Source of the DNA: an uncultured Candidatus Saccharibacteria bacterium
Lineage (GTDB): Bacteria > Patescibacteriota > Minisyncoccia > Phycocordibacterales > CAYSCM01
Assembly (NCBI GenBank): GCA_964429815.1
Contig: CAYSCM010000001.1
Location: 288,001-352,000, forward strand
DNA: 64,000 bases
Reading direction: 5' to 3'
The notes below the pieces were generated by a model. The model saw only the letters and a program-made list of their open reading frames with translations, was not told the DNA's origin and ran no database searches. Positions 16,277 through 61,919 of the stretch are shown in pieces (the first letter of the stretch is position 1; the number at the start of each line of letters is the position of its first letter). A program made the translations under genes and the position numbers.

Positions 16277-16287
16277 CTCTCAGGTCG

Positions 16288-19257: not shown

Positions 19258-19262
19258 CATTG

Positions 19263-19350
19263 CGGAGAGGGTGGGATTTGAACCCACGGTCCAGTTTCCC
19301 GGACTCCGCATTTCGAGTGCGGTGCCTTCGACCAACTCAGCCACCTCTCC
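19263..19350 (-). tRNA. tRNA-Ser (anticodon CGA)
   Basis: Acceptor ggagagg/cctctcc, long variable arm, anticodon loop cuCGAaa, T-loop ttcaaat. Confidence 0.8.
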
Positions 19351-46287: not shown

Positions 46288-46560
46288 GTGGCGACTATAG
46301 AAAAAAGGATATGGCCAGGGAACTTCGAAGAGGTCCTCTCCGGCAAAAAGACGTATGAGCCGAGACTCCAGGATTTTGTAGTTGAGCCGGGAGATACGCT
46401 CATCTTGCGAGAGTGGGATCCTAAATTAGGCGAATATACAGGACGTAAAATCAAGAAAAAAGTTTCTCAGGTTTCTAAACTTTCTGCAAAGGAGCTTCGA
46501 AAGTATTGGACCCAAGAGCAAATAGAGCACTACGGGCTTCAAATAATCCATTTCACCTAA
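46288..46560 (+). CDS. DUF3850/ASCH-like small protein
   Basis: GDTLILREWD...YTGR pattern. Confidence 0.4.
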   Translation: MATIEKRIWPGNFEEVLSGKKTYEPRLQDFVVEPGDTLILREWDPKLGEYTGRKIKKKVSQVSKLSAKELRKYWTQEQIEHYGLQIIHFT

Positions 46561-46661
46561 CGCCGTCTTGATGCGGCGTTTCTCGCCCTTGTCGCGCTCG
46601 GCTTCCAGAACTGTAGCGCGATGGCGGGACGTGCTGCGAATAACGGGGCTATACTACTCTC

Positions 46662-48032
46662 ATGCAAGAGTTCGGGAAGAGGATAGCGCAGGGGTATGAG
46701 CGGTTGTTTTCTATAGAAGAAATACGCGCCACCCCTCTCCTCCAGTGGATGTTCGGAGCCATGCTCCTTTTTTTCTTTTATTCTTTCTCCATCTGGCTCT
46801 TCACGGGCGCTGGCACGCAGGAGGCATATAGAAGCGGTGCGGTCGTGTGCTGGCCGTATTTCCCCGATTGCGGCAACTATGCGCTCTTTCACGATCTCTA
46901 CGTCGACTATTCGAAGGGCATTTTCTACATGCTCCTCTACGCGATACTCCTCGCCATCGTGTGGTGCATGTGGAAAGGGAGATGGGCGGCCGCGCATGCA
47001 CTCATGGTCATTCTGTTCCTATGGCAGGCGCTGTTCTCGCTTGTCTTTGCCTACACAATGACGGGGCCGCCGTACTACTACCATCTTTTTTTGACCGCCA
47101 TCCTCCTCTTTGTTCCGTTTAAAGAGTATTTTTTACGAGTCGCCTTTGTTCTCTTGTATTTTCTCTCGGCCACCATTAAATTCGACAGCGGATGGGTACT
47201 CGGTACCGAATTTACGACGCTCAAGACCGGTCTCCCGCTTTTCTCCGACGCGCTGACCCCCATTTTTACCAACATCGTCATCTTTTCGCAGGTGGTCCTG
47301 TGTTGGTTTTTGCTATCGAGCCGTCCAAAGCTGCAGCGCGGAGCGCTCCTATTTTTCGTATTCTTTCACTGGTACTCCGGGATTTTCGTCGGATACCTCT
47401 TCCCGACCATCGCCCTCGTGCCGCTTCTCATTCTCTTCGGGCCGATGTATCGGCCGCTTCCGGCGCCGTTTGACAAACGTGCGCTCCCCGGCGTTTTCGT
47501 GCTCGGGCTCATGATCGCGTTCCATGCTGTCGGGTTCCTCATCCCTGGGGATCGTCGCATGACGCTCGAGGGGAGCCGGTACGGATTTTTCATGTTCGAT
47601 GCGAATTATCAATGCCGCATGAACGTGACTATCTACAGCGACCTGAGGCCTCTGCCTCCCTCAGGGCTTGAGGCGTGGGACAATCCGCTCGGTACGCGCT
47701 GCTACGATTTCTATTGTCTTGTCGGTGTTCATGGAAGCTCGACTAAACACGAGCTTGTGCGGAACGAACGTTACGAGTCAAATTTTTCCCAGCACAGCTG
47801 CGACCCGTACGAATGGTGGGCCCGGTATCGGCCGCAATGCGCCGCTTCGTCGACCAGACGGATTTCTCTTCAATTCGACAATTCAGTAAACGGCAGCCCG
47901 TACTACCGCATCGTCGATGTCGATAATGTCTGCGCTCTCGACTACAGACCATTTAGCAGAAACGAATGGATCAAAGAGCCACCGGAAGCTCCTGTCGTCG
48001 GATATCCGGTCAAGGACGTATATCGCTATTGA
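46662..48032 (+). CDS. polytopic membrane protein with Cys-rich C-terminal domain (possibly HTTM-like)
   Basis: About 8 transmembrane helices followed by a ~150-aa soluble Cys-containing region. TATACT 46650-46655. Confidence 0.35.
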   Translation: MQEFGKRIAQGYERLFSIEEIRATPLLQWMFGAMLLFFFYSFSIWLFTGAGTQEAYRSGAVVCWPYFPDCGNYALFHDLYVDYSKGIFYMLLYAILLAIVWCMWKGRWAAAHALMVILFLWQALFSLVFAYTMTGPPYYYHLFLTAILLFVPFKEYFLRVAFVLLYFLSATIKFDSGWVLGTEFTTLKTGLPLFSDALTPIFTNIVIFSQVVLCWFLLSSRPKLQRGALLFFVFFHWYSGIFVGYLFPTIALVPLLILFGPMYRPLPAPFDKRALPGVFVLGLMIAFHAVGFLIPGDRRMTLEGSRYGFFMFDANYQCRMNVTIYSDLRPLPPSGLEAWDNPLGTRCYDFYCLVGVHGSSTKHELVRNERYESNFSQHSCDPYEWWARYRPQCAASSTRRISLQFDNSVNGSPYYRIVDVDNVCALDYRPFSRNEWIKEPPEAPVVGYPVKDVYRY

Positions 48033-48033
48033 T

Positions 48034-48225
48034 ATGAATGTCTCAACCACGACGCTTCTCGTGCAAAAATCTTTCGCGGGGAATCCCCCGGTCGAGCTCA
48101 ACGCGCTCCAGCGCTTCCTCGAGCCGCATGCGACGACCATCGTTCATGCGTGGGTCGTACTCTGGATCCTAACCGCTCTGTTCGTTTTGTTGAAACTGCA
48201 TCGAGACTATCGTTCTCGTAGATAG
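48034..48225 (+). CDS. small membrane protein (63 aa) coupled to the upstream gene
   Basis: ATG 1 nt after the upstream TGA. One transmembrane helix. Confidence 0.3.
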   Translation: MNVSTTTLLVQKSFAGNPPVELNALQRFLEPHATTIVHAWVVLWILTALFVLLKLHRDYRSRR

Positions 48226-48263: not shown

Positions 48264-48334
48264 TGCGGGATCGTCTAATGGTAGGACACCAGGTTCTGGC
48301 CCTGGTAATCTAGGTTCGAGCCCTAGTCCCGCAG
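48264..48334 (+). tRNA. tRNA-Gln (anticodon CTG)
   Basis: U1:A72 acceptor (tgcggga/tcccgca), 3-bp D-stem, anticodon loop uuCUGgc. Confidence 0.75.
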
Positions 48335-48450
48335 CAGCAGTCAGCGCAGTATCGTGCGAGACCGGAGAGCCTCAGAACTCAAAGGTCCGCCGATTCGCTG
48401 AATGTACTATTCCGTTATTGCATATCCGGTGAGTCCGGTATTCAGAACAA

Positions 48451-48477
48451 AAATCGCCCCTTACAGGGCGATTTTTG
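48451..48477. terminator. bidirectional intrinsic terminator
   Basis: aaatcgcccc-ttac-agggcgattt with flanking A and T runs. Confidence 0.55.
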
Positions 48478-48493
48478 TTGGCCGACTATTTCT

Positions 48494-49825
48494 CTAGAGA
48501 TATCTTTTTGCTTTTAATGTGATTCTGGTTTTAAGAGTTCCTAGCAGTTCACGCTTCTCAAGAACATCGCCTTCTGTCAGGACATGTCTCACATAATGCC
48601 GTGCATCGAAGTGTTCCTCGACACGCTGCGGTGATTGCTGCCCCAAGAACATTCTTTGGAATTTCTTAGCTCGGGCGCGTTCCTCCTCAAATTTCTTGCG
48701 AATTATCGGCTCATTGAGTTCTAATTTATCTATCTGCTCTATGAGTTGTCGGACAAGCTCCTCTTCGCGAATGTAACCGGCGGCTCTACAGGCGCGATCC
48801 TTTGAGCGATTGCATCCGTAGTACAGGTACGTGGCAGTCGTGCCCGTGCTTTTGATGAGTTTGTGCTTCTCCTCGGCGCAGACACCCGAGCCGCACGCTC
48901 CGCAGGTGATGAGTCGTGTGAAGGCGAACTCCTTGGACTCACCGCGCACAATTCTGTCGCGCTTGAGTTGTGCCAGCACCTTTTCATACAGTTCACGGGT
49001 GATTATCGGTTCGTGTTTGCCCGTGTACCATTTGCCGCTCCCGATTGGGTACTCAAACTGTCCGAAGTAGAACGGCGTCTGCAGGATTTTGTAAATGTTA
49101 CTCAAAGTCAGAGGCTTATTGCTCGTTGCGCTTCGGAAATTCATATCGAACTTGAGCCAGTGATAGAGCTTTTGCCCAGACCATTTCTCGTATGCGACCT
49201 TCTCGAACATCTGCCGAACGACTGGTGCACGGTCGGGGTCGACCATGACGTACCCCTTCCGGTCGACACGTTTCTCGTTGAGGTAGCCGGTCGGCGCAGG
49301 CGCAGGCCATAAGCCCATCTCACAGCGCATGCGGAGGCCTCGCTTCACATTCACACTTTTGTTGTCGTTCTCAAGCTTTGCCTGACTGCACAAAATCATG
49401 AGAAGAAATTTCTCACTCGGTGAATTTGTGAACTTCTGGCCGTATGTTCGGATCTCGACGAGAAGTTTTTGGTCCATCAAGTCCACCAGACTCCCGAGGT
49501 CGCCTGCGTTGCGGCTCAGGCGGTCTGGGTTCCAGGTGAGTACACCGTTGAACCGTCCGGAGCGGATGTCTTTGAGAATCTCATTGAACACAGGCCGCTG
49601 GCCGGAGTCCTTCGCAGAGTGTGCTTCACGCCGGATGTCCACGATCTCGATGCCATCACGCTCCGCGATCTCGAGCATTTCCTTCACCTGAGAGTCGATG
49701 GACAGTGCCTGTTTTTCGCTCGTGTCCTCAGTCGACTTTCGAGCGTAGAGTACATACTTAACTGGTACTGCTAATTGCGGCACGAAAGTGCCTGGAGCTC
49801 TAGCCCCTCGGGTTATGGTTTCCAT
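48494..49825 (-). CDS. large serine recombinase (resolvase-domain integrase)
   Basis: N-terminal resolvase domain YARKSTED..S, recombinase domain, C-terminal CxxC...C zinc ribbon and coiled coil. Confidence 0.8.
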   Translation of the reverse strand: METITRGARAPGTFVPQLAVPVKYVLYARKSTEDTSEKQALSIDSQVKEMLEIAERDGIEIVDIRREAHSAKDSGQRPVFNEILKDIRSGRFNGVLTWNPDRLSRNAGDLGSLVDLMDQKLLVEIRTYGQKFTNSPSEKFLLMILCSQAKLENDNKSVNVKRGLRMRCEMGLWPAPAPTGYLNEKRVDRKGYVMVDPDRAPVVRQMFEKVAYEKWSGQKLYHWLKFDMNFRSATSNKPLTLSNIYKILQTPFYFGQFEYPIGSGKWYTGKHEPIITRELYEKVLAQLKRDRIVRGESKEFAFTRLITCGACGSGVCAEEKHKLIKSTGTTATYLYYGCNRSKDRACRAAGYIREEELVRQLIEQIDKLELNEPIIRKKFEEERARAKKFQRMFLGQQSPQRVEEHFDARHYVRHVLTEGDVLEKRELLGTLKTRITLKAKRYL

Positions 49826-49917
49826 ATACCCAAAGGAATGACGCCTCCCGCCAGGAAGTCCAACGTCTAAGTTGGTAACCTTCAGAGCCGATTTGACTTT
49901 GATTCATTTGATGCATT

Positions 49918-50229
49918 ATGATGGTAGGTATGGAAGATTCAGTTTCAGGGTACAAAGCAGTTAAACGGCTCGCGGTAGAGCGGCCTGATTGGCTCCCTAT
50001 CATTCGAGAGTGCTTGAATTTGCGGAAAGAGATTCACAACACTGACTTTGCTGGCGCATGGGTATATCAGCGTCTTCAAGAGAAGGGCGGACCGAAATTT
50101 TCAAATCTGCGTCTTCTTGTTAGCTTTGGCATCTTGAAGAAAGAGGCGACCTCACGCGGTGGTCGACGCGCGTACTACTCCTTCGTCGATCCTGAGGGTG
50201 TCGAGAAAGCATTAAGCGAGCTTTCATAA
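49918..50229 (+). CDS. hypothetical protein
   Basis: ORF. Preceded by the agttggtaacct motif. Confidence 0.3.
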   Translation: MMVGMEDSVSGYKAVKRLAVERPDWLPIIRECLNLRKEIHNTDFAGAWVYQRLQEKGGPKFSNLRLLVSFGILKKEATSRGGRRAYYSFVDPEGVEKALSELS

Positions 50230-50233
50230 TTTT

Positions 50234-51331
50234 ATGAAAGTCAAAGTTGCGAACACAAGCCTACACGGCGCAAAGAAAGCGAAAAAAGACGAGTTCTACA
50301 CTCAACTCGTTGATATTGAAAAAGAGCTGAAGCACTACAAAAACCAGTTTCGCGGCAAAGTCGTGTACTGCAACTGTGACGACCCGTTCGAAAGCAACTT
50401 TTTCAAATACTTTGCCGCAAATTTCAACGCGCTTGAGTTGAAAAAACTTATCACGACGAGCTTCGTCAAATCGCCTATCGCTGGTGGGCAGTTGCCGCTT
50501 TTTGAAATGCAGGGGCTAAAACCCGACGGCAAAGAACCGTTTAAAATTGCAATACGGGAGGTCCCAGACGCGGACGGCGACGGTGCAATCAATCTTGATG
50601 ATGTGAAGTATCTACTGCAGCACGACAAGAACACAGCAACCCCGCTGAAAGGAAACGGCGATTTCCGCAGCGATGAATGCATGGAATTTCTTAAAGAGGC
50701 AGACATCGTCGTGACAAACCCGCCATTCTCACTTTTTCGTGAATACATTTCGCAACTGGTAGAACACAACAAAAAATTCCTGATCATCGGCAACATCAAC
50801 GCCGTCACCTACAAAGAAGTGTTCCCTTTGATTAAGGCAAACAAACTATGGCTCGGTGCAAGTATCCATAGTGGGGACCGCGAGTTCCGAGTGCCGGAGG
50901 ACTACCCGCTAAACGCAGCTGGCTACCGAGTTGACAGCGACGGAAACAAATATATTCGCGTCAAAGGTGTGCGCTGGTTTACCAATCTCGATTACGACGA
51001 ACGCCACGACAGCGTTGTGCTTTACAAAAAGTATTCGCCAAAAGAATATCCTAAATACGATAACTACGACGCCATAAATGTGAACAAAACTGTTGATATT
51101 CCCATGGACTATAAAGGCGCTATCGGTGTACCAATTACTTTCCTTGATAAATACAGCCCCGACCAATTTACAATTCTAGGCGCACTAATCTCTGGTCCAC
51201 TTGGACAAGAGCTAGGAGCGACCAAAACAAAACAGATCAGGCCAAACGGAAAAACGACAATGGAATACGGGCCTATTATCAAGACGAAGGGTTATTACGG
51301 AAGGATTGTCATTAAAAATAAAACGCTATGA
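50234..51331 (+). CDS. N6-adenine DNA methyltransferase (EcoRI-methylase-like/phage Dam-like)
   Basis: DEFYTQ N-terminal motif and VTNPPFS (motif IV NPPF). Confidence 0.55.
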   Translation: MKVKVANTSLHGAKKAKKDEFYTQLVDIEKELKHYKNQFRGKVVYCNCDDPFESNFFKYFAANFNALELKKLITTSFVKSPIAGGQLPLFEMQGLKPDGKEPFKIAIREVPDADGDGAINLDDVKYLLQHDKNTATPLKGNGDFRSDECMEFLKEADIVVTNPPFSLFREYISQLVEHNKKFLIIGNINAVTYKEVFPLIKANKLWLGASIHSGDREFRVPEDYPLNAAGYRVDSDGNKYIRVKGVRWFTNLDYDERHDSVVLYKKYSPKEYPKYDNYDAINVNKTVDIPMDYKGAIGVPITFLDKYSPDQFTILGALISGPLGQELGATKTKQIRPNGKTTMEYGPIIKTKGYYGRIVIKNKTL

Positions 51332-52419
51332 AAATCGAGCTACAAAAAATAAAAATACGCGATGTCGTGAATGGCTACAAAGACAGCGCCGAGGAAGGCG
51401 TCGTAGCGTATGGTGGTAAGCTCGATATTCGTCCAAAGTACCAGCGTGAGTTCATCTACAAAGACAAACAGCGCGATGCGGTGCTTGATACGGTCAAGAA
51501 AGGATTTCCACTCAACGTTATGTATTGGATGGTGCGGGAGGACGGCGGTTATGAAGTGCTCGACGGCCAACAGCGCACCATCAGCATCGGCCAGTATGTC
51601 AATGGTGATTTCTCGCTCGGCGACCGCTATTTCCACAATCTCATCAAGGAGGAGCAAGAGCAGATTTTGAGCTACGAGCTGATGATTTATTTCTGTGAGG
51701 GCACAGATAAGGAACGGCTCGACTGGTTTAGGACAATCAACATCGCGGGCGAAAAGTTAACAGACCAAGAGCTTCGCAATGCTGTATACACTGGCCCTTG
51801 GCTTTCAGACGCAAAACTCAAATTCAGCAAGACGGGCTGTGCTGCCTATCACTTGGCAAACGACGGTGGGGCGCTCGTCAGTGGCTCGCCGATCCGACAG
51901 GAGTATTTGGAAACTGCACTCTCATGGATAAACAAGGGTGAGGTTGCGGCCTACATGGCGAAGCATCAGCATGACAAAGACGCTGAGAAACTATGGACTT
52001 ACTTCCAAGACGTAATTGGGTGGGCGCGAAAGACGTTCCCCAACTACCGCAAGGAAATGGCGCATGTGAACTGGGGTGAACTATACAATGAGTTCAAAGA
52101 CAAGAAACTGAATGCCGCCAAACTCGAAACCGAAGTCAAGAAACTAATGCAGGACGAGGATGTAACGAAAAAGTCCGGCATCTATCCGTATGTTTTGACC
52201 GGCAACGAGCGCGAACTTTCTATCCGCGCGTTCACCGACAAAATGAAGCGCGAGGCATACGAGCGACAAGACGGCGTCTGTCCGTTTTGCAAAAAGAAGT
52301 TTGACGTTTCAGAAATGGAAGCCGACCACATCACGCCATGGCATGAGGGCGGAAAAACAACAGCTGAAAACTGCCAGATGCTCTGCAAGCAAGATAACCG
52401 GACAAAGTCCGGGAAATGA
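51328..52419 (+). CDS. DUF262 (ParB-like) N-terminal domain fused to a C-terminal HNH endonuclease
   Basis: DGQQR motif of DUF262. C-terminal CPFC...DHITPWHEGG...NCQMLC...N HNH. ATGA overlap with the MTase. Confidence 0.6.
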   Translation: MKIELQKIKIRDVVNGYKDSAEEGVVAYGGKLDIRPKYQREFIYKDKQRDAVLDTVKKGFPLNVMYWMVREDGGYEVLDGQQRTISIGQYVNGDFSLGDRYFHNLIKEEQEQILSYELMIYFCEGTDKERLDWFRTINIAGEKLTDQELRNAVYTGPWLSDAKLKFSKTGCAAYHLANDGGALVSGSPIRQEYLETALSWINKGEVAAYMAKHQHDKDAEKLWTYFQDVIGWARKTFPNYRKEMAHVNWGELYNEFKDKKLNAAKLETEVKKLMQDEDVTKKSGIYPYVLTGNERELSIRAFTDKMKREAYERQDGVCPFCKKKFDVSEMEADHITPWHEGGKTTAENCQMLCKQDNRTKSGK

Positions 52420-52476
52420 ATCGAGAAGTCATCGAAAAAAACATGGCGACGAAATGACACAGACCATAAATATCCC

Positions 52477-53184
52477 ATGATAGAGCTACCATCTTGGCTT
52501 AAGATTGGAAAAATAATCGAAAAACTCGATTTCTCCAATTGGTTTAGTCGCCAGTTAAGAGATGATCAGCGTAAGTATGTGGGTGGGGACTACATCGAGA
52601 AAGTGGAAATACATAACCACGCTCCTTCAGGCACCATCGAGGAAGATCCGCTGGCCAGAGGACTGTATACGCTTGGTTTGGAAAGACGGCAGGTAGACAC
52701 GTACGGGGGCTTCTTCAATAGTTTTTATCTAGAAGTAGAGAAGAGACGGGAGCGTCAAATAACGAGAAGTGCTCATACCATGCTATTGGGTGCGGTTTTT
52801 GCCGTCGGGACAAAGTATCAAAACAATCCTGAGTGGAAAGAACACTGCTCATCGTCATTACGTGAAATATTCCACGAGTGGAGTGGCCCAGATGAATTCA
52901 GGCGGGACCTTGTTTCTGTCTACAACCACAGCAACGCAAAAGGAGGGCTTGCAACAGACGAGGAGGATAGTCTAACGTCATTTTGGCTTCTGTATCGATA
53001 TTTCTCTAGTATAGATCATCATCAAGCATCCGGAATACTGCACGCTCTACGCGCATTTCTTAGAGATAGCTCGCTTAAAATCGAGGACTGCGTGAATGAC
53101 GATATTTTTATTGAGAGAGCAAAAGATTTCTTCTCACATTTATCTCGTATTTCTGAAATCGCAAAGAAACGTACTGAACCATGA
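52477..53184 (+). CDS. hypothetical protein (235 aa), first gene of an unknown two-gene module
   Basis: ORF. ATGA-coupled to the next gene. Confidence 0.3.
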   Translation: MIELPSWLKIGKIIEKLDFSNWFSRQLRDDQRKYVGGDYIEKVEIHNHAPSGTIEEDPLARGLYTLGLERRQVDTYGGFFNSFYLEVEKRRERQITRSAHTMLLGAVFAVGTKYQNNPEWKEHCSSSLREIFHEWSGPDEFRRDLVSVYNHSNAKGGLATDEEDSLTSFWLLYRYFSSIDHHQASGILHALRAFLRDSSLKIEDCVNDDIFIERAKDFFSHLSRISEIAKKRTEP

Positions 53185-56177
53185 ACCAGATCGAATTACA
53201 CAACAGGATAGATGAGTACATTGCTCACGGCCCAGGGAAGGCTGCATGGACGGCTGTAAAAAAAATAACTGAGATTCACCTCGACGTGAAGAAGTATTTT
53301 TATACTAGAGCCGATGAAAAGTGGTTTGACTTGGTACGCGGAGATATTCTGAATGTGGCGAAGACAAAAGCTAGTGATCCCACGAAATACTCATATCAAA
53401 CGCCTGAGCTTGATTATTTGGCTCGGGTGGCTGAGATAATTCCACAGAAGGTCACTAAACTCATTTTAGACACTTCCATATCTAAAGAGAACTTCAATCC
53501 AGAAGTGGTTGATCGTTTTCTTTGGATTTCGAGCAAATTGCCCGCCGACCAACTTAAACGAGTAGTCGTGAAAATCCGCGATGATCAATGGATTCAACTT
53601 ATGGCGCCTTTCAATAGGTGGGTTTTTGAATATCAAAAGATGTTCGAGACGCTTGCAGTTGCCAAGGACCAGGACAGCATACTTATCCTTGCGGAAGCGG
53701 TTTTGCGGACACGTTCAAAGGATGAGCTGGCAAAGATTAACAATGGGATATCGACGGACAATCCCTTCTTCCTTTCAGACCTCAGCGAAACAGACATTTT
53801 CAGTCTTCTTGCCTCTTCTGATGATAAACATCTAGATGCTGCTCTTCGGGTCGCAACTAATGCACTCGCGGGCGTTATCAGGACTGGCGATCGAGAAGAT
53901 AACGTTTTTGAAATCGGTGAGATTTTTCACCTCTTTGATGTTGACTTTTTTTCTCTTGAATTGGGCAAGGGCCGACATTATTCACATAGAGATGAGGTCA
54001 GAGAACTGGCAGCCGTTGTCAAAACACTCGTGAATCGCTCTATTGGTAAGAGCTGCAACGATTCAAAAGAGACTCGCCGGATCTACGAACACATAGAACG
54101 TTTGCCGGATAGTCGATCCATGTGGCGACTGCGGCTCTATGTCTGGAGTCTGTGTCCGAAGGTGTTCAAGGACGAATTACAGACTGCATTTTTCAAGGGC
54201 CTAGAGTCGCGAGAAATGTTATGGCCAATTACAGGCGGTGCGGAATACGATCACGCTCTTAAAAGGTGTTTTGATGTTGTTCTGTCCGAGGAGGACCGGA
54301 AGGCATATATTCAACGTGCCTTTGAGATACTTGACGTGAATGAAGAGCACCCATACGGCTACGGTATATTTGCCAGTATCCAAAGGCATCTGTCAGAACC
54401 GCAGAAGCAGCGGGTGGAAGCCCTCTACAAGATGCCGCTTGATCCAAATTATACGCCTGAGCCTAGCGTAGGTCATTCGTATGCCGGCACAATAGTTTCG
54501 CAGTCACCCAAGGAGGCAGATGATGTCTGGGGAAAGCCGGTTCCGGAGATTGTACAAGCTCTAGAAACCCGCTTGACGCCGGAGCAACTACAAAAGATAG
54601 ACGGTAGGAAAGATTTTCTAAAACCGGTAAACGCAGAGGGGGTGGCGGATAAAATGCGGTCACAAATGAAAGAACGCACGAGTGAATATACCGCCAACGC
54701 GACTTTGTTTTTCGATAGAAAACTAATGGATCCACACTACACCTACTCCTTCTTCCGTGGCGTGGATGAGATTATTCGCTTGCATCGAGAAAAAGTGTCA
54801 GAAATAAACTGGCAGCAGATTATTGCGCTTGGTGTCGCAATTACGAAAGAAGGACAACGAGAGTCTTTTGATTTCACTAAGCGAGAAAGGGAGCACTTCG
54901 ATGCCTGGCTCGCAGGATGGATTGGTGTACACGACGGCCTCGGAGATGTTTTGCAGGATTATCTCCGAAATGATAACGGAATCACTGAGGAGTCCTTCAA
55001 TAAGAACCGGGAGGATCTTTTCAAGATTATTTGCTACCTACTCACCATACCGGATCCGGTTCCTAAGGACGAGCAACCTGAAACGGCTGGCATGACTACC
55101 ACGCCGCCCGGCGGAGAGAAATTAGTGAGCGATCCTTTCGCGATAGCCATTAACTCGGTTCGCGGCCGAGCATATCAAGCGTTCGTAATGTTTATGGAGT
55201 GGGATGGGCGTAAGTATGCGAAGGACGCAAAAGTGAAGCTATCTCCAGATGTATTGCAAGAGTACAAGGATCTTTTAGCGCGTGAAAATACCGGCGCAAT
55301 TTTCTTCATGTACGGACACTATCTACCGTTTTTCTACTTCCGCGATGTTAAGGAAGTCCGAAAGCTCCTCCCGCAAATATTTACGAGCGACAGTAAAAAG
55401 GTTCATCTGTATCTCGCGGCGTGGGAGGGTTATCTGACTCGTAGTCTCTATCGAGAGATGTTTGTCCAGCTACAGGGTGAATACGAACGAGCAATCAAAA
55501 ATAATCCTGACTCTTATCCGAAAAGAAATTACCGTGCAGACCTTGACGAAGCATTAGCAACTCATATGGCATTGGCGTACATCCACTTCGAGGATTTCAC
55601 GCTTGATTCAAGTCTGTTCAAACTTTTTTGGAGCACTCCAAACCAAAAGAGGTATCAAGAGTTTGTATCATTCATCGGACGCTATGTGATCTCGAAAGAT
55701 CATGCAAAGGAGAATCTCGCTGAAAATCCTGAGATCAAACTTTCTAAGCTTATTGACTTCTGGGATTGGACGCTTGAATACGTTAATGACCCGGATGTAT
55801 TTGCCGAATATGGTTTCTGGATGGATACAACCGGTGGTTTATATGACGATGTAACGGCACTTGCCCGAAGGATTCAGAAAACACTCAAAAAATCTAAAGG
55901 TAAAGTCGACTGGGAGATTAAGCTAATGGATTCGCTCCCGACGTTGGCGGCAGCAGTCCCCAAGGACACACTGGAGATTTTACGACTTTATCTCAAACCA
56001 CTTGATGTGAGCCCACGCAGTCGACACTTCATGCATGTCGACGCCGACCTTGTAAATATTTTCAGGACGCTGCATAAGAATCCAGAGACTCAAGACGAGA
56101 CTTATAAGTTGATCGACGAACTCCTGCCGTTGGGGAATGGGGTGTATTGGAAGTTGAAGGAGGCCTTAACGGAGTAG
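53181..56177 (+). CDS. large hypothetical protein (998 aa), no recognisable catalytic motifs
   Basis: Long uninterrupted ORF, predicted helical/repeat-rich. No Walker A or nuclease motifs seen by eye. Confidence 0.4.
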   Translation: MNQIELHNRIDEYIAHGPGKAAWTAVKKITEIHLDVKKYFYTRADEKWFDLVRGDILNVAKTKASDPTKYSYQTPELDYLARVAEIIPQKVTKLILDTSISKENFNPEVVDRFLWISSKLPADQLKRVVVKIRDDQWIQLMAPFNRWVFEYQKMFETLAVAKDQDSILILAEAVLRTRSKDELAKINNGISTDNPFFLSDLSETDIFSLLASSDDKHLDAALRVATNALAGVIRTGDREDNVFEIGEIFHLFDVDFFSLELGKGRHYSHRDEVRELAAVVKTLVNRSIGKSCNDSKETRRIYEHIERLPDSRSMWRLRLYVWSLCPKVFKDELQTAFFKGLESREMLWPITGGAEYDHALKRCFDVVLSEEDRKAYIQRAFEILDVNEEHPYGYGIFASIQRHLSEPQKQRVEALYKMPLDPNYTPEPSVGHSYAGTIVSQSPKEADDVWGKPVPEIVQALETRLTPEQLQKIDGRKDFLKPVNAEGVADKMRSQMKERTSEYTANATLFFDRKLMDPHYTYSFFRGVDEIIRLHREKVSEINWQQIIALGVAITKEGQRESFDFTKREREHFDAWLAGWIGVHDGLGDVLQDYLRNDNGITEESFNKNREDLFKIICYLLTIPDPVPKDEQPETAGMTTTPPGGEKLVSDPFAIAINSVRGRAYQAFVMFMEWDGRKYAKDAKVKLSPDVLQEYKDLLARENTGAIFFMYGHYLPFFYFRDVKEVRKLLPQIFTSDSKKVHLYLAAWEGYLTRSLYREMFVQLQGEYERAIKNNPDSYPKRNYRADLDEALATHMALAYIHFEDFTLDSSLFKLFWSTPNQKRYQEFVSFIGRYVISKDHAKENLAENPEIKLSKLIDFWDWTLEYVNDPDVFAEYGFWMDTTGGLYDDVTALARRIQKTLKKSKGKVDWEIKLMDSLPTLAAAVPKDTLEILRLYLKPLDVSPRSRHFMHVDADLVNIFRTLHKNPETQDETYKLIDELLPLGNGVYWKLKEALTE

Positions 56178-56178
56178 C

Positions 56179-56397
56179 TTAGAGGAAATACTCAACATTC
56201 TTTCCGTATAGCTTCGCCAGCTTGTTGAGCCATATTGCTTCTACCCGCAATTCTCCCAGCTCAACTTTCGACACCCACGACTGAGAGCATTTGAGTTTGT
56301 CAGCGACCTCGGCTTGTGTCAGCCCCGCATCAAGGCGGGCTTTCCTCAGTCGCTTCACGAATACAGCCCGCTCGTCAGTATGAATGGACTTTCTCAT
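56179..56397 (-). CDS. XRE-family HTH transcriptional regulator
   Basis: LTQAEVADKLKCSQSWVSKVE helix-turn-helix. Confidence 0.7.
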   Translation of the reverse strand: MRKSIHTDERAVFVKRLRKARLDAGLTQAEVADKLKCSQSWVSKVELGELRVEAIWLNKLAKLYGKNVEYFL

Positions 56398-56527
56398 ACC
56401 TATAAGCGTCTATTCCGTTATGGGATATTCCAAAATGGAATATTCAATGTTAGGCTACGAATGTCCGACAAAGGCAAGAGTTGGTAACCTCCTTCGCAAG
56501 CCTCCGAATCTAAGTTAGGAACACCAC

Positions 56528-56995
56528 ATGGACCCTATATCCAATAACAAGCGTAATACCATCCTTACCGGCGTCTCCGGCGAGTACTACGTCGCCGCTG
56601 AACTTTCGCGTCGTGGATACCTCGCCTCTATCACACTTCGCAACACCAAAGGCGTAGACATCCTCTGCTCAAACGCGGAGGCGAGTAAATCTGTAGGTAT
56701 CCAGGTAAAGGCAAAGTCGGGTAATGATCGTGTATGGATTCTCAACGAGAAAGGAGAACATTACTACGCGAACAATCTCTTTTACGTTTTTATCAACATC
56801 GACGACGGTCTCAACAAGCATCCTGAGTACACGGTCGTGCCCAGTAAGGTAGTTGCCGAGTACGCTCGCGAGTCGCACGCGAGGTGGTTAAGCGAACCGA
56901 AGAAGGACGGCAGCGCTCGCAAAGACACGACTATGCGGAAGTTTCAGGATCCGGAGGAGAAGTATCTTGGTCGGTGGGATCTGTTGGGTCTTTGA
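56528..56995 (+). CDS. PD-(D/E)xK nuclease superfamily protein (DUF4365-like)
   Basis: GEYYVAAEL ... GVDIL ... IQVKAK resembling the D...(E/Q)xK core. Confidence 0.4.
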   Translation: MDPISNNKRNTILTGVSGEYYVAAELSRRGYLASITLRNTKGVDILCSNAEASKSVGIQVKAKSGNDRVWILNEKGEHYYANNLFYVFINIDDGLNKHPEYTVVPSKVVAEYARESHARWLSEPKKDGSARKDTTMRKFQDPEEKYLGRWDLLGL

Positions 56996-57560
56996 ATTCG
57001 TTCCCGTATTTCTCATTCAACCTCTCGAGTGTCTTTTTGCTAATAACGATCTGCCCGTTTTCGTCTGAAAATGCTTCAATTAGGTCTTGTTTTCTCTGTC
57101 TCTCAACTTCGTCAAGGAATTTCTTCAACGAAGCCTCTCTGACAAGTAACTTCCCGTCGGGGCCGGTGAACATCCTCCGCAATTTCTTCAGGTCGATTTC
57201 CATCTGGTAGTCGGGACCGAATTCCTCATAGTCGTCGAACTTATCCATGAGCGGTATCTTCTCCTCCTCGCCGCGAAGCTTCGGGCTGTAGAACTTGCTG
57301 TTGTGCGTGAGGAAGAATTTGGAGTCCGCCTTGTCCCCGTTGTTGATCCCTTTGATGATGTTCGACTCCGCCTTCTCGCTCACGGCCTCCCGGCTCACTC
57401 TCCGCACGGTTTCCGCGGCCCGCTTGAATTCCGGGTCGTCGTGCATCCACCGGTATATGGTCATGCGCGTAACGTCGACCTTTCGCGCGGCCGTGCCGAT
57501 AAACGGCGTGGTCTCCAACGCCTTGAGGAATTCCTCGCGTTTATCGGCACCGTGCGTCAT
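56931..57560 (-). CDS. phage terminase small-subunit-like HTH protein
   Basis: N-terminal FIGTAARKVDVTRMTIYRWM HTH typical of TerS. Acidic C-terminus. Confidence 0.35.
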   Translation of the reverse strand: MTHGADKREEFLKALETTPFIGTAARKVDVTRMTIYRWMHDDPEFKRAAETVRRVSREAVSEKAESNIIKGINNGDKADSKFFLTHNSKFYSPKLRGEEEKIPLMDKFDDYEEFGPDYQMEIDLKKLRRMFTGPDGKLLVREASLKKFLDEVERQRKQDLIEAFSDENGQIVISKKTLERLNEKYGNEFKDPTDPTDQDTSPPDPETSA

Positions 57561-57563
57561 AAA

Positions 57564-58925
57564 CTAGCCGATCTTCACGCGCTTCTTGCCTGTGAACTTC
57601 TCCCAGCGATTGAGAATTACTTCGGCGTACACAGGTGATTTCTCAATCAGGAAACAACGCCGACCAAGCGTGATGGATGCGATGAGCGTCGACCCGCTCC
57701 CGCCGAACGGCTCAAGCACGAGCTGCCCGCGCTTCGTGAGCGTCTTGATGTACGGCACGAGAATCTCGATCGGTTTTACGCCGAAGATGATCGCTTGGCC
57801 TGAAGATTTTTCATCAGCGGCATTGAACTCGATGAAATCGGTCGGGCAGTATTTCTTGTCTTTGCCGTAGCTCTCCCAGTGTGCGCCCTTGCCGTCAATG
57901 GCAAAGAGTGCCGTTTGGTACTCGTTCTCGTACAACTCCTGTTCGTTCTCGAGATTCAGACCGCTGTACTCCTCGCTCGTGCCGACCATCGCGATGTCGT
58001 GCTTGGAGAAGAACTTATTGCGCCCCGCGTATCCTTGGTTGCGGTTCGGCAAGTGCCACACGATCATATTGCGCACCTTCCAGTGCTTTTCCATCTCACT
58101 CCAGATTTCGCGAATGTTCTTCCAGTTTTCGTAGCAGATGATTGAGAAGTCCTTATTCGCAACTTTCGCAACATTGCTCATCCATTTCTCGGTGAAATCG
58201 GCTGGCAATGATTCTGTTTCAAGATAGCGACGGTTCTTCTTCGAGCCGAACCCAACCGTTGGCTCGCCATTGCGGGTCTTGCCTTTGAGGTAGTCCAGCC
58301 GATACGGAGGGTCCGTCATAACCATGTCCGCCTTTTCGGACATGAGCTTGAGCACATCTTCTTCGATAGTGCTGTCCCCACAGAGAAGCCGCGAACCGTC
58401 GAGCTCGTACACGTCGCCCTTCCGCACACCGATTGTTTTGATGTCGAGCTTTTTGAGCTCTTTCTCAAGTGAGAATTCCGCCTCCGTAGAATCTTCCTCA
58501 AAGATGTTGTCGAGTTCTTCGGAATCGAAGCCGACAGCCTCAAGGAATGCTTCGTCGAACTCGGCGAGCAACAGGTCGTAATCCCACTCACCGACAGCCT
58601 TGTTGAGGCGGAGGCAGAGGTCCTTCTCTTTTTCGATATCGGCAATGTGGACGAAGACGCACGGCACCTCCTTGTACCCGAGATCTTTCATGACTTCGAA
58701 GCGGAGGTTGCCGCCAATAATGACGTTCTCGCGCTCCTTGGCGCGGTTTACTACAAGGGGATCAACACTTCCATGCCGCTCAAGACTCTCGCGCACGGGC
58801 TTCTTCGTGTCATCGTTGACCAAACGAGGATTATATTCGGCGTGCTTAAGGCTGGTAATGGGAACATATTCGACCCACAGTTTGTGAGCCGTATCCGCAG
58901 AGACTGCGACAGTGTTTTTAGTCAT
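57564..58925 (-). CDS. ParB-like nuclease domain fused to N6/N4 DNA methyltransferase (phage-type orphan MTase)
   Basis: N-terminal ParB/Srx region. DPPY motif IV and EPFGGSGST motif I. Confidence 0.7.
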   Translation of the reverse strand: MTKNTVAVSADTAHKLWVEYVPITSLKHAEYNPRLVNDDTKKPVRESLERHGSVDPLVVNRAKERENVIIGGNLRFEVMKDLGYKEVPCVFVHIADIEKEKDLCLRLNKAVGEWDYDLLLAEFDEAFLEAVGFDSEELDNIFEEDSTEAEFSLEKELKKLDIKTIGVRKGDVYELDGSRLLCGDSTIEEDVLKLMSEKADMVMTDPPYRLDYLKGKTRNGEPTVGFGSKKNRRYLETESLPADFTEKWMSNVAKVANKDFSIICYENWKNIREIWSEMEKHWKVRNMIVWHLPNRNQGYAGRNKFFSKHDIAMVGTSEEYSGLNLENEQELYENEYQTALFAIDGKGAHWESYGKDKKYCPTDFIEFNAADEKSSGQAIIFGVKPIEILVPYIKTLTKRGQLVLEPFGGSGSTLIASITLGRRCFLIEKSPVYAEVILNRWEKFTGKKRVKIG

Positions 58926-59012
58926 ATGGTTACGACTATTAACGAATAATAGGAGACGCTATGCCTCCTGTATGTAGTAGTCGCCGGAAAATCGGAGTTT
59001 AATACCCGCCCC

Positions 59013-59453
59013 TCACAGCTCCAATCCTGCGGGATATACTCGATTGGTTATGTAGGTATCACGCCCCGCGCGGCGGCGGAGGTCCTTTATTCCGTTTTTG
59101 AGAATGCTAAGAACGTATGTACGCGGCGCTGCGCCATTTTTGTGCTTGAAATTGAGCTTCGCGTTGATAAGCCGCAACTTCAGTTCGCTTTCTATATCAT
59201 CGGGGTCAAGATCTGGAACCCACTCGTATTCAGCAATCTTTCTGATGTCCGCGCTATATTGCAAATAGAGTTTAAAATTCGGTGCCATGCAATGGATTCT
59301 ACAACCGGTGTTCGAGTAAAAGGTGCCAGGCGAGAACGCAAAAATCTCCAATGACCCTAAATGAAGCATTCGAGATTTTTGAAAACGGTGGATAACTGAT
59401 TTGACGGGTTTTCGCAAAACTCTTGAGTGTCGTAACATTCGTATCATTTTCAA
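59013..59453 (-). CDS. hypothetical protein (C-terminal region sigma-70 region-4-like)
   Basis: ORF only. Confidence 0.25.
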   Translation of the reverse strand: MKMIRMLRHSRVLRKPVKSVIHRFQKSRMLHLGSLEIFAFSPGTFYSNTGCRIHCMAPNFKLYLQYSADIRKIAEYEWVPDLDPDDIESELKLRLINAKLNFKHKNGAAPRTYVLSILKNGIKDLRRRAGRDTYITNRVYPAGLEL

Positions 59454-59557
59454 AAAATGACCCCAACCGAGACGGGTCAGTTTGCTATCATGAAAGTCTC
59501 CAAAGAATCCTTATAGTGTCTTACCACTCTGGGTTCTGAACCGGAGCGGCCAGCAGA

Positions 59558-59851
59558 TTACTTGGATTTCAAATAAAGCTCGCTGTATTTAATCATCGCG
59601 TTTTCGATGACTTTGAGACCCCTGCCTTTTCCCGTTGCGGTATAGATCCCCTCTTTTGATTTTGCGATTAAGCCGAGCTTCTTGAGGCGCATGAGCTTAA
59701 GGGTAAGCGTGCGGGTCGATATTCCTTGAAGCCAGCCCTCAAGCTCAGAAAAACGCTTCGGTCCTTCCGTAAGCGCTCGCATGATAAGCATCGTCCAGGT
59801 GTCAGAAAGGAGTTCGGCAACCCTGGTAATAGGGCAGGTCTCTTTGGTCAT
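59558..59851 (-). CDS. HxlR-family transcriptional regulator
   Basis: CPI..V...L.D.WT.LI.R...GPKRF.EL...GIS.R.LT..L..L...GLI. Confidence 0.7.
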   Translation of the reverse strand: MTKETCPITRVAELLSDTWTMLIMRALTEGPKRFSELEGWLQGISTRTLTLKLMRLKKLGLIAKSKEGIYTATGKGRGLKVIENAMIKYSELYLKSK

Positions 59852-59871
59852 AGCTGTACTCTAGCATAGAA

Positions 59872-59930
59872 GACTTTACAAAGTAAAGTCTTTATTGTGG
59901 GGCTATGGAAACTGCTTTACAAAGTAAAGT
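59872..59930. promoter_or_regulatory. two copies of palindromic operator GACTTTAcaaagTAAAGTC in the hxlR/LUD divergent promoter
   Basis: Perfect 7-5-7 palindrome at 59872-59890 and an imperfect copy at 59914-59930. Confidence 0.45.
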
Positions 59931-59967
59931 ACTTAGTGGAATATAGTGCTCTACTAGCTTCTATTTC

Positions 59968-60594
59968 ATGCATATGCCACAAGTCGCTGCATCAAAAAAA
60001 GAGAACGTGCCAACGTCACTCATTGATACGTTCAAAGAACGTAACATTGAAGTGATGCTCATCAAAGGTCGGGAGGGGGCGCTTGAAAAAATTAAAGAGT
60101 TGATTCCGGCAGGAGCGTCGGTGATGAATGGCACTTCGAGGACTCTCGAAGAGATCGGGTATATCGATTATCTGAAATCGGGCAAACATAGCTGGCGCAA
60201 TCTCCACGAGGAGATTTTGAAAGAAAGTGATCCGGCAAAGCAGGCGCGCCTGCGCAAGGAGGCATCGATCGCCGACTATTACCTCGGGAGCGTACATGCG
60301 CTCACGGGGGAGGGGGAGTTCCTCATAGCTTCTGCCTCTGGAAGCCAGCTTCCGGGCGTTGTGTTCAATGCCAGCAACCTGATTTTCGTAGTAGGAAAAC
60401 AGAAAATAGTCCCCGATCTGGCAGCCGCATTTAAACGCCTCAAAGAATACGTTGTTCCGCTTGAAGATGCACGCATGAAAAAGGCGCATGGCATAGGCAC
60501 GCTTCATTCGAAGACCTTACTATTTCACCGGGAAGCTCCGTTTACCGGACGCAAGGTTTACCTACTCCTCGTCGACGAAGAGCTTGGGTTTTAG
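59968..60594 (+). CDS. LUD-domain (LutC/DUF162-like) protein
   Basis: Lactate-utilisation LUD domain pattern. Divergent from the HxlR regulator. Confidence 0.45.
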   Translation: MHMPQVAASKKENVPTSLIDTFKERNIEVMLIKGREGALEKIKELIPAGASVMNGTSRTLEEIGYIDYLKSGKHSWRNLHEEILKESDPAKQARLRKEASIADYYLGSVHALTGEGEFLIASASGSQLPGVVFNASNLIFVVGKQKIVPDLAAAFKRLKEYVVPLEDARMKKAHGIGTLHSKTLLFHREAPFTGRKVYLLLVDEELGF

Positions 60595-60674
60595 TCCGCC
60601 AAGCACTCACTAGTGCCGGCATAACCTCGCCCATGTTGCTCCGCACGATTGCTGCGGCAGAGGTATACTTTGTG

Positions 60675-61919
60675 TATGGCTAAAGTATGGCTTGGCGTTA
60701 TCGGCCTCGTCATTTTGGGAGGGGCTTTTTGGGGATTACGGCATGAATTGTCCGCACCTGCTTCGACCGACCAAAATAATCAAGCCCAAAAAATTTCCTC
60801 GCTGCAGCCGACACTGAATTCGAATACGCAAACAAAAACCACCGAGACCTCATCCTCCCATCGCGCAACAGGTGGCGCACCCCTTAGCCAAAGCGAGCTC
60901 TTGGCACTCGCAGACAACAAGTATAGTAACGGTGCGATACCCCTTGGCGATTATAAGTACATCACCTCCGGGCCCAAGAAGGGCTACATCTACCTCTGTC
61001 GCGCCATGGGCGGAGGCGGTGGCGCGCAGGCGAATGGTCCGTGGATCCACGGAAGTACTTGGAATCCGAGCGAGAAGATTGCCGTACGCGGAGCAATCGT
61101 TTGGCCGAATGCGACATTTTCAAACATCATCTCCGGTGCCAGTCGCATTCTCTCGGGGAATGGACTCCCCGTCGGCTACACAACCGGGGTATTCCCGATT
61201 TCCGCAAGCGACCCCGCGTATGCTTACGATAGGAACCCTAACTCCATTTCAGCGCAGTCTTTGTTGAAGACCCTTCCGGAAAATCCCGCGTACAGCGATT
61301 CGCCCTACTGCATGGGCGGGGAAGTGGGCATCATGCTCTCGGGGTGCCGCTTTTCAATGGATTTGATGCGGACACGCGGGATGCCGTCGCGCATGAGGTG
61401 CAAGATTCTTGTGGCGGCCATCCGGAGAGGACCGGACAGTACCACTACCACGGGCTCTCGGCTTGTTTTAAGGACACGAATGTTTCGACCGTGCTCGGCT
61501 ATGCACTCGACGGCTTTCCGATAACCGGTGGCACGGTCGCAGCGAATGCCTACCTCACGACCGAGAACCTCGACGAATGTCATGGACTAGTGAGCGACGT
61601 CGTCATAGATGGAGAGGTGCGGACGACCTATCACTACGTGTTGACGCCAGATTTTCCCTACTCCGCAAGCTGTTTCCGGGGGAAACCGGTGTCACTTATG
61701 ACCGGGGGAGCGGGAGCGTCGGGTTCTCAGATAACACCAATAAGCCAGCCTTCGCAGAGCACGAGAGGCATCCCGGGGCAACCACCTCAAGAAGCTATCA
61801 GTGCTTGTATCGGTAAGTACTCAGGCATGTCGTGCTCTTTCACCTCATCTTACGGCGACATCATCTCCGGCAACTGCGCCACGCCGCCTGGCTCGCAGCT
61901 CGCTTGTGTTCCGCAATGA
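60675..61919 (+). pseudogene. YHYH-family secreted protein gene with a frameshift in a G4 run (61341-61344)
   Basis: Upstream frame ends ...CMGGEVGIMLSG. The downstream frame continues VPLFNGFDA...CGGHPE...YHYHG. One extra G would restore a single ORF. TATACT 60663-60668. Confidence 0.55.

Follow-up and report, generated by a model that had tools for sequence, protein, structure and literature searches.

What kind of DNA follows the tRNA-Gln gene on contig CAYSCM010000001.1 of an uncultured Candidatus Saccharibacteria bacterium (GenBank assembly GCA_964429815.1), where a serine recombinase gene, restriction–modification (R-M) genes and phage-like genes lie side by side? The window analysed here is the whole stretch of 64,000 nucleotides at contig positions 288,001 to 352,000, and all coordinates without a locus number refer to it. 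The first-pass annotation, made from the sequence alone, had placed a composite island, taken to be a degraded prophage or satellite, at 48,264–60,600. The open reading frames (ORFs) of the window were scanned against Pfam, PADLOC and PHROGs. The island is a genuine mobile island of about 11 kb, phage-derived and stripped down. We consider it likely that the DNA from 48,336 to at least about 59,300–59,560 is an integrated element, that it belongs to a large family, not described so far, of Paceibacteria-type bacteria of the Candidate Phyla Radiation (CPR), and that the window copy is a reduced derivative. Members of the family share a phage-derived backbone of one or more DNA methylases, a helix-turn-helix (HTH) protein resembling the small terminase subunit (TerS-like), the large terminase subunit (TerL), a variable cargo slot and a large serine recombinase. 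In the window copy TerL has been lost, and cargo of lower guanine–cytosine (GC) content, namely an XRE regulator, a PD-(D/E)xK-like gene and a five-gene plus-strand operon, fills the slot between the TerS-like and recombinase genes.

The comparison with the closest relative found, L024, a 402-kb contig from the European Nucleotide Archive (ENA) whose CTP synthase is 83% identical to that of the window, brackets the insertion directly behind tRNA-Gln(CTG). This tRNA gene (48,264–48,335, plus strand; ARAGORN; Rfam tRNA, 59.6 bits) belongs to the host, is intact and is the integration target. L024 is syntenic with window positions 32.4–46.6 kb (DNA ligase, GatC/GatA, a release factor, FtsE, FtsX, CTP synthase and DUF3850), and the tRNA-Gln(CTG) of the window is syntenic with the tRNA-Gln(CTG) downstream of CTP synthase in L024 and in a second relative, L025. 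In L024 the synteny block is followed by tRNA-Gln(CTG), a DUF924 gene and a PAP2 gene, with 0.65 kb between tRNA and PAP2, compared with 13.5 kb (48,336–61,831) between tRNA-Gln and the syntenic PAP2 gene (start 61,832) in the window. In both, DUF5670 and SH3 genes come after PAP2. None of the genes of the 13.5-kb bracket has a counterpart in L024 or L025, and the DNA similarity between the window and L024 ends exactly at the last base of tRNA-Gln. Lying beside a tRNA gene and missing from a close relative that keeps both flanks, the extra DNA has the features of a tRNA-associated island. No recombinase-less relative had the same gene order at similar GC, which the first-pass annotation had named as evidence against an island. 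Its end coordinate of 60,600 found no support, as the comparison brackets the extra DNA at 48,336–61,831.

Other flank searches gave less. The CTP synthase of the window is about 72% identical to proteins of Kaiserbacteria and Paceibacterota, which places the host among the Paceibacteria-type CPR bacteria, and the identical protein occurs on a 502-kb NCBI contig. Three of its relatives (P0004, P0009 and P0011) have unrelated DNA downstream and no empty site. A search of genome and metagenome collections with the 456-residue protein of the left flank (46,662–48,032) returned only relatives of 29–62% identity, solely in unrelated neighbourhoods, with no common neighbours, no tRNA and no empty site. 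Exact-protein look-ups of flank genes retrieved the same strain only, in two Logan runs. As a separate observation, the DNA between CTP synthase and tRNA-Gln (46,288–48,225), and beyond, differs in every relative compared (L024, L025 and L033–L037), and on this comparison the stretch around both genes is a plastic zone. Moreover, the island-free L025 carries an exact duplicate of the 3' 44 nt of tRNA-Gln(CTG), 26 nt past the tRNA (L025:10169–10310), apparently the trace of a past integration or deletion event at this tRNA.

The first gene past tRNA-Gln is, as had been proposed, a large serine recombinase on the opposite strand (48,494–49,825, minus strand; 443 aa), and it is apparently intact. 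It combines a catalytic Resolvase domain (1.3e-20, residues 25–171), in which the catalytic-serine motif YARKSTE...SIDSQ is kept, with a C-terminus made of Recombinase (1.3e-12) and Zn_ribbon_recom (6.5e-6) domains, the two parts that define large serine recombinases, and it matches the integrase family phrog_95 (2e-65). The best 120 homologues are 66–90% identical, and all named ones among them belong to Patescibacteria or 'bacterium', including Paceibacterota, Zambryskibacteria and Taylorbacteria, several of them on contigs of 0.3–0.7 Mb. A G+C-rich hairpin between A and T runs (48,449–48,478), read from the sequence and missed by a simple terminator scan, looks like a bidirectional terminator between the tRNA and recombinase genes.

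Four genomic contexts of the recombinase were read besides that of the window. In L028/L029 (GCA_027318325.1; recombinase 72% identical), the recombinase gene is followed by a methylase and a 284-aa gene, DUF5343 and HEPN_Swt1 genes, a convergent tRNA-Gln(CTG) and dnaX. The order in L030–L032 (77%) is an S24 repressor, a ParB-methylase, a TerS-like gene, the recombinase with no TerL before it, methylase/endonuclease VII genes, xseA-like genes, a convergent tRNA-Gln(TTG) and dnaX. L042–L044 (72%) carry methylases, TerS, TerL, the recombinase, a diversity-generating retroelement, a convergent tRNA-Gln(CTG) and FtsX–FtsE–release factor genes, and in L027 (75%) more than 10 kb of DISARM-like defence genes follow the recombinase. 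Thus, in four of the five contexts, the window included, the recombinase gene reads toward the 3' end of tRNA-Gln with 0–4 kb of variable cargo in between. The convergent tRNA-Gln lies 3–4 kb downstream of the recombinase in L028, L030–L032 and L042, with differing host flanks (dnaX or FtsX).

A trailer of about 35 nt stands directly after the tRNA, at the same offset, in the window, L042, L028 and L030. It reads AGCAGTCAGC GCAGTATCGTGCGAGACCGGAGAGC in the window (48,336–48,375, plus strand) and ACGAGTCAGC GCAGTATCGTGGATGACCGAAGAGG in L042, and it is similar in L028 and L030. The trailer is missing in the island-free L024 and L025, both of which diverge right after tRNA-Gln. From this comparison we infer that it is the element-derived half (B-O-P') of a serine-integrase hybrid site. 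Insertion by the recombinase would take place at the final base of tRNA-Gln or directly behind it, a crossover position that would leave the tRNA intact and the two genes convergent. The recombinases of the window and L042 are 72% identical and their host FtsX proteins 42% identical, which fits horizontal spread better than vertical descent, and the recombinase may still be able to excise and integrate the element.

Three further observations concern the recombinase and its target. In L030 (11105–11225; also in L031 and L032) a degenerate second copy, consisting of the tRNA 3' end, 10 nt and ACAATATCGAAAGAGA, lies 84 nt past the first trailer and suggests tandem or successive integration at tRNA-Gln. 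A stretch of about 55 nt that directly precedes the start codon of the recombinase gene has 77% identity in a comparison of the window (49,826–49,879) with L027 (9,931–9,987), and it may be a conserved promoter/operator or a recombination-related site. Two IMG/VR relatives, L011 (11340–11560) and L014 (11300–11520), have in common a segment of about 150 nt just past the recombinase stop (CCTACGCGAATAAAAACGG...CTTATTCGCGTAGG...) with obvious internal complementarity, which could be a structured RNA or a recombination site.

The far end of the element is less sharply placed. Serine integrases act on short attB and attP sites that share only a central crossover dinucleotide, and the resulting hybrid attL and attR sites flank the element; such an enzyme is not expected to leave a copy of the tRNA 3' end at the far boundary. 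The earlier failure to see a distal att repeat by eye was reproduced by computation, with no second copy of the tRNA 3' end in the window at up to three mismatches and no convincing terminal repeat. General searches for direct and inverted repeats returned nothing above chance at the element ends. No second site appeared when the window, L027, L028, L030 and L042 were scanned on both strands with a weight matrix of the trailer, and the trailer motif with mismatches had 22 matches in the whole window against 19.7 expected. One two-mismatch match (18,842–18,857) lies inside an ORF and was rejected as chance. Likewise, the pattern of tRNA plus trailer had no matches in IMG/VR, the sequences that follow the recombinase genes of the IMG/VR relatives, once aligned, revealed no common end, and Rfam recognised only the tRNA at the junction. 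A missing distal site is not surprising for serine integrases. The distal end lies somewhere from about 59.3 kb, behind a sigma-like gene, to 61.83 kb; the element itself may end near 59.3–59.56 kb.

The phage origin of the backbone emerged from ten IMG/VR loci on nine contigs, whose recombinases are 51–72% identical to that of the window and whose ORFs were clustered. Their backbone runs from one or more ParB/methylase genes through a TerS-like gene, a gene for a protein of about 480–560 aa and zero to four further genes to the recombinase. The backbone protein of about 500 aa is the large terminase (phrog_38, 1e-71 to 1e-83; Terminase_6C in L042), and the series methylase–TerS–TerL–recombinase is present in L010, L012, L015–L019, L027, L039 and L042. 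In the window, two minus-strand genes represent this series besides the recombinase. They encode a ParB_N–DNA methyltransferase fusion of 453 aa (57,564–58,925; Pfam N6_N4_Mtase 6.2e-22 and ParB_N 3.6e-8; phrog_498 2.7e-80), which is 60% identical to its equivalent in L030, and a TerS-like HTH protein of 209 aa (56,931–57,560). Both had been named before; the fusion was recognised by its profiles, and the TerS-like call is supported by position because homologues stand directly upstream of TerL in L012, L015, L016, L027, L039 and L042.

TerL itself is absent from the window copy, L028 and L030, and a tblastn search of the window found no TerL remnant. The cargo of the window occupies the TerL position of the relatives; L039 uses the same slot for cargo yet keeps TerL. 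No portal, capsid, tail or lysis genes were found among the neighbours tested with Pfam and PHROGs or in the precomputed Pfam tables of L027, L028, L030 and L042, and the island ORFs scanned with Pfam or PHROGs include no structural or lysis genes. An intact prophage was rejected on these grounds, that is, no TerL or remnant of it and no structural or lysis genes. By its gene content, the window copy is a TerL-less derivative of a phage-derived family and would be unable to package itself. The family may consist of capsid-borrowing satellites, of remnants or of something else. A degraded prophage or satellite beside tRNA-Gln, as proposed at first, is supported by the L024 bracket, the recurrent tRNA-Gln with its trailer, the methylase–TerS–TerL relatives and the composition of the cargo.

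The other genes of the relatives include immunity-type regulators, namely an M78 peptidase and an S24 repressor, as well as diversity-generating retroelements, superinfection-exclusion-like proteins, R-M systems and DISARM-like genes. Small proteins encoded upstream of the methylases in different elements have no mutual homology. Two TerL paralogues stand in tandem in L017 (3809–6938), L018 (1620–4813) and L019 (2405–5564), which is unusual for phages, and the contig behind L012 and L015 carries two methylase–terminase–recombinase modules in tandem. In L042 (11575–13532) and L010 (3808–6234), the cargo slot next to the recombinase holds retroelement genes and superinfection-exclusion-like proteins; both retroelements include a reverse transcriptase, and bAvd was called in L042. 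A PLD–SNF2 helicase followed by an Eco57I/MmeI-like methylase, an incomplete DISARM-like set, recurs in L027 (11396–20249) and L040 (3194–9525). It is followed in L027 by an unrelated 764-aa protein without a family match and in L040 by a fused homologue of the 998-aa cargo protein described below.

Base composition separates the backbone from most of the cargo. The recombinase, TerS-like and ParB-methylase genes have a GC content of about 52–53% and a GC content at third codon positions (GC3) of 0.62–0.71, which is host-like (host GC3 0.62–0.70). Over the cargo at 49.9–56.2 kb the GC content is 44–50%, and the genes of the 103-aa protein, the methylase, the 235-aa protein and the 998-aa protein have GC3 values of 0.42–0.53; the restriction gene has 0.62. 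Most cargo genes thus deviate from the host and the backbone does not. On this difference the element is composite, as the first-pass annotation had called it, with an ameliorated or host-adapted backbone and more recently gained cargo. The drop to about 45% GC that had been placed directly 3' of tRNA-Gln exists in the cargo and not in the adjoining recombinase gene, which has 52%. A second dip at 59.0–60.0 kb covers the stretch of the sigma-like and HxlR genes.

Several points weigh against an integrated element of this kind. L024 gives a bracket only, so that the comparison with related genomes proposed for finding the empty site located the insertion without yielding a base-precise empty site. 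Neither a distal att site nor an inverted copy of the trailer was found in the window, and genes for a recombination directionality factor or for replication were not identified. The association with tRNA-Gln is known from four loci. L027 has no tRNA within reach, that is, within 10 kb, and the DNA between recombinase and tRNA-Gln in L030 includes probable host genes (xseA), so that the adjacency there may be a shared neighbourhood and not a junction. The TerS-like call is weak at the sequence level, its matches to PHROG small-terminase families (1.8e-8 and 3.4e-6) including a best one to the N-terminal HTH. None of the relatives examined (L025 and L033–L037) agrees with another in the DNA that follows CTP synthase, so that some of the 13.5 kb could have been gained in other ways; the HxlR, LUD and 291-aa genes at its far end may lie outside the element.

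The same evidence bears on an alternative that we regard as unlikely, namely an active phage satellite that is integrated under XRE control and excised on helper infection, whose TerS-like protein (in relatives, TerS together with TerL of their own) directs packaging into helper capsids and whose defence cargo protects the host and hinders other phages. In its favour, the element measures about 11 kb and carries an integrase, an XRE regulator and a TerS-like gene but neither capsid nor tail nor lysis genes. Members with TerS only arose at least twice (window and L030), TerL-bearing relatives have no detected structural genes in 8–17 kb, and the intact recombinase is conserved much more strongly than host proteins. 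However, no replication module, primase or helper-sensing antirepressor was found, and no helper phage is known. The weak TerS homology could reflect an excisionase-type HTH (Pfam HTH_17; AlpA in L012), CPR capsid proteins might escape the profiles used, and decay explains the loss of TerL equally well. That there is no discrete mobile element, and that a recombination hot spot after CTP synthase and tRNA-Gln gathered genes piecemeal, with the recombinase and methylase/TerS genes as relics, is highly improbable: the divergence of this region in every relative, the partial tRNA-Gln duplicate of L025 read as a scar of other events, the heterogeneous GC inside the segment and the missing distal att site would suit it, but the backbone order and the recombinase-to-tRNA-Gln orientation recur in unrelated hosts with a conserved junction sequence, and the recombinase is intact and 72–77% identical across hosts whose FtsX is 42% identical.

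Within the integrated, TerL-less element that we favour, the cargo is dominated by five plus-strand genes (49,918–56,177). The first and second genes are 4 nt apart, the second and third overlap by 4 nt, 57 nt separate the third from the fourth, and the fourth and fifth again overlap by 4 nt. A promoter scan placed a promoter-like site at 49,893–49,922 upstream of the first, and the five look like one operon. The first gene encodes a 103-aa protein (49,918–50,229) without a Pfam, PADLOC or PHROG match. The next two are the R-M pair already annotated, an EcoRI-family N6-adenine DNA methyltransferase (50,234–51,331; Pfam EcoRI_methylase 5.2e-149; PADLOC MTase_II 3e-129) and a type II restriction endonuclease with DUF262/GmrSD_N and HNH domains (51,328–52,419; Pfam GmrSD_N 2.9e-17 and HNH 9.9e-13; PADLOC REase_II 2.7e-140, full-length). 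Methylase and endonuclease genes are adjacent, as in type II systems, and overlap by 4 nt. Counts of 6-bp palindromes in the window did not clearly point to an avoided target. The last two genes form the module that the first-pass annotation had left unassigned, and neither of their products, a protein of 235 aa (52,477–53,184) and one of 998 aa (53,181–56,177), has a Pfam or PHROG match.

The only match of the 998-aa protein is to the PADLOC Dsr1 profile, of which positions 712–1167 align with residues 420–932 (7.5e-19). Its AlphaFold2 (AF2) model is an all-helical solenoid with a predicted local distance difference test score (pLDDT) of 87. Foldseek returned HEAT/ARM proteins, and the best template modelling (TM) score among the 50 top rows, 0.37, belongs to Avs4 bound to a phage portal (8dgf). 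No SIR2 domain was found with Pfam or PADLOC and no NTPase domain is present. An assignment to DSR1 was rejected for lack of the SIR2 domain and for the restriction of the match to the C-terminal part of the profile. The protein has 240 homologues at E <= 1e-5. The 120 listed, excluding the window's own, are 40–65% identical; wherever one of them is named, the name is 'hypothetical protein', and all lack a Pfam domain. Most of those with a named source come from Paceibacteria/Parcubacteria, and Omnitrophota, Elusimicrobia and Cloacimonetes contribute one record each.

Roughly one in four of the homologues listed is longer, at 1,165–1,216 aa. In one of these, P0137, the extra N-terminal region of about 200 aa is homologous to the 235-aa protein (BLASTP 3e-5; hhalign 89%, E 2e-6, with the motifs aligned), which means that the window encodes a split form of a protein of about 1,200 aa. 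The family of the 235-aa protein comprises 60 cluster representatives of 87–282 aa, some with an N-terminal hydrophobic stretch, and is marked by conserved Glu/His motifs, RN..TML.GA.FA.G...N.EW.EHC.SSLRE and YY.YFS.I.HH. The 235-aa protein is a predicted helical bundle without a structural match, and sequence searches of the PDB with either protein returned nothing.

The genomic contexts, the most telling clue to its role, link this pair to restriction. All four IMG/VR contigs with a homologue of the 998-aa protein carry the terminase module and three of them also the recombinase; on three of these contigs an R-M-type operon ends with the homologue, which usually overlaps the gene before it. 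Type III Mod and Res genes precede the pair in L038, where 235-like and 998-like genes are separate, and the fused form in L039. In L040 the fused form follows a PLD–SNF2 (DrmD-like) helicase and an Eco57I/MmeI-like methylase. In L012/L041 the homologue has a different 242-aa partner, with a PDC-S11-like gene before and methylases after, and in the window the type II R-M pair comes before the 235-aa and 998-aa genes. This context suggests a restriction-linked accessory immune function as the most likely role of the pair. The solenoid is likely to be the sensor or scaffold of such a defence module, and the Glu/His bundle would be its effector or adaptor. The solenoid resembles sensor regions of Dsr1 and Avs4, and the pair, as a split protein, would act as an add-on anti-phage sensor and effector linked to restriction. 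One might speculate that the module guards restriction.

Between the operon and the backbone lie two divergent genes. The first encodes an XRE-family HTH regulator of 72 aa (56,179–56,397, minus strand; Pfam HTH_31 1.9e-12 and HTH_3 1.1e-8; PHROG repressor families), as annotated before. The second encodes a 155-aa protein (56,528–56,995, plus strand) with a 27%-identical homologue in L039 at 14,033–14,557, beside the 998-aa homologue. It had been called a PD-(D/E)xK nuclease. A PD-(D/E)xK-like motif (GEYYV...VDIL...IQVKA) can indeed be read by eye, and the profile matches are limited to PHROG families of unknown function (phrog_29029, 1.5e-16).

On the far side of the ParB-methylase, a 91-aa protein with sigma-70 region 2 only (59,013–59,288, minus strand; Pfam Sigma70_r2 8.5e-6; GC 45%) is plausibly the last backbone gene and possibly a late-operon activator; its ORF is extendable to 59,453, and it is called as 91 aa in Logan assemblies. 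The HxlR-type regulator noted before (59,558–59,851, minus strand; Pfam HxlR 8.6e-14) has its own minus-strand terminator-like hairpin, listed at 59,480–59,463. Between it and the gene of a 208-aa LUD-domain protein (59,968–60,594, plus strand; Pfam LUD_dom 7e-27), a repeat search found two copies of the palindrome CTTTACAAAGTAAAG (59,874–59,938; 88% identical, 41 nt apart). These palindromes are probably HxlR operators, in which case HxlR and LUD would be a self-contained unit. Both genes are absent from L024 and L025. We treat them as a separate unit inside the bracket whose membership of the element is uncertain. The following 291-aa gene (60,649–61,524, plus strand; no Pfam match; absent from L024), with a host-like GC content of 55%, is also inside the bracket yet probably not part of the element.

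Elsewhere in the window, a second low-GC patch (15,000–19,000; 46–48%) adjoins tRNA-Ser(CGA) (19,262–19,350) without a recombinase and carries assorted accessory genes, which encode an S-adenosylmethionine (SAM) methyltransferase, a glyoxalase, an S26 peptidase, a YdeI-like protein and a serine hydrolase. A transfer-messenger RNA (tmRNA) with a long tag of 21 residues (AKSVTSPYFSAKDFSFAYATA) lies at 6,813–7,183, coinciding with low GC around 6–8 kb, and a tRNA-Ile with the rare TAT anticodon at 10,733–10,806.

Literature searches on CPR prophages, serine recombinases and integrated elements of such kind in CPR bacteria found nothing relevant, and they yielded no description of the host range, the tRNA-Gln target with its junction motif, the terminase-only backbone or the solenoid module coupled to R-M genes. 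The locus was compared with described systems. It behaves as a serine-integrase prophage remnant or a satellite-like island. Large serine recombinases are known from the prophages or remnants phiC31, Bxb1, A118, SPbeta and the skin element of B. subtilis. The window element resembles these in the Resolvase/Recombinase/zinc-ribbon integrase at one end, the lack of long flanking direct repeats, the phage packaging genes (methylase and TerS, with TerL in relatives) and the occurrence of reduced remnant forms. The known sites of the named serine-integrase phages lie inside protein-coding genes, and tRNA 3' ends are typical of tyrosine integrases. The window element differs in targeting a tRNA 3' end and in its CPR hosts, and no structural, lysis or replication genes were detected in the family members examined.

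The fit to satellites of the phage-inducible chromosomal island (PICI) type is partial. These comprise an integrase, a master repressor, a primase/rep-ori module and a TerS packaging module in about 10–15 kb, and they are induced by helper phages. The element is of similar size, integrates at a specific site, and has a regulator of the repressor type, defence cargo and a TerS-like gene but no capsid genes; these traits it shares with PICIs, including the Staphylococcus aureus pathogenicity islands (SaPIs). Unlike in these, the window integrase is a serine and not a tyrosine recombinase, there is no primase/replication module and there are no capsid-remodelling genes, and most relatives carry a full TerL, some of them two in tandem. 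To our knowledge, a full or tandem TerL is not a feature of described satellite classes.

The R-M pair and the solenoid module also have described counterparts. The methylase is a full-length member of the EcoRI_methylase family, and the product of the overlapping gene matches a REBASE-derived type II endonuclease model from end to end; unlike in EcoRI, this endonuclease has DUF262 and HNH domains and not the EcoRI fold. The 998-aa protein shares a helical sensor region with DSR1 and DSR2, which consist of a SIR2 domain and a long alpha-solenoid C-terminal sensor (PMC11850899; bioRxiv 10.1101/2021.12.14.472415). It matches the C-terminal part of the Dsr1 profile, its fused homologues likewise join a small N-terminal domain to a helical region of about 1,000 aa, and its predicted alpha-solenoid has its best PDB overlap, among the 50 top rows, with Avs4 bound to a phage portal. 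In contrast to DSR and Avs4, the system has neither a SIR2 domain nor a STAND NTPase, its N-terminal domain or partner is an unrelated Glu/His bundle, and its gene sits at the 3' end of R-M operons.

Two proposals are put forward tentatively, and we hold them to be doubtful. The first is that methylase–TerS–TerL–cargo–recombinase elements are an unrecognised CPR-specific class of capsid-less, terminase-encoding satellites or transfer elements that home to tRNA-Gln by a serine integrase. The second is that the protein formed by the 235-aa and 998-aa parts, split or fused, is a new restriction-coupled immune component, in which a solenoid sensor and a novel bundle effector have joined operons of type II, type III and DISARM-like systems. 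It might, for instance, be a guard set off by a block of restriction. The locus exposes a widespread and conserved family of serine-recombinase elements using tRNA-Gln, which might be a source of new site-specific integrases, and it illustrates the movement of defence genes among CPR lineages, bacteria with tiny genomes. The 998-aa family, attached to three types of R-M operon, is a concrete candidate for a new anti-phage component. Compared with the known systems, what is new is the range of CPR hosts, a target at the 3' end of tRNA-Gln that has a recognisable junction motif, the terminase-only backbone and the recurrent solenoid module coupled to R-M genes.

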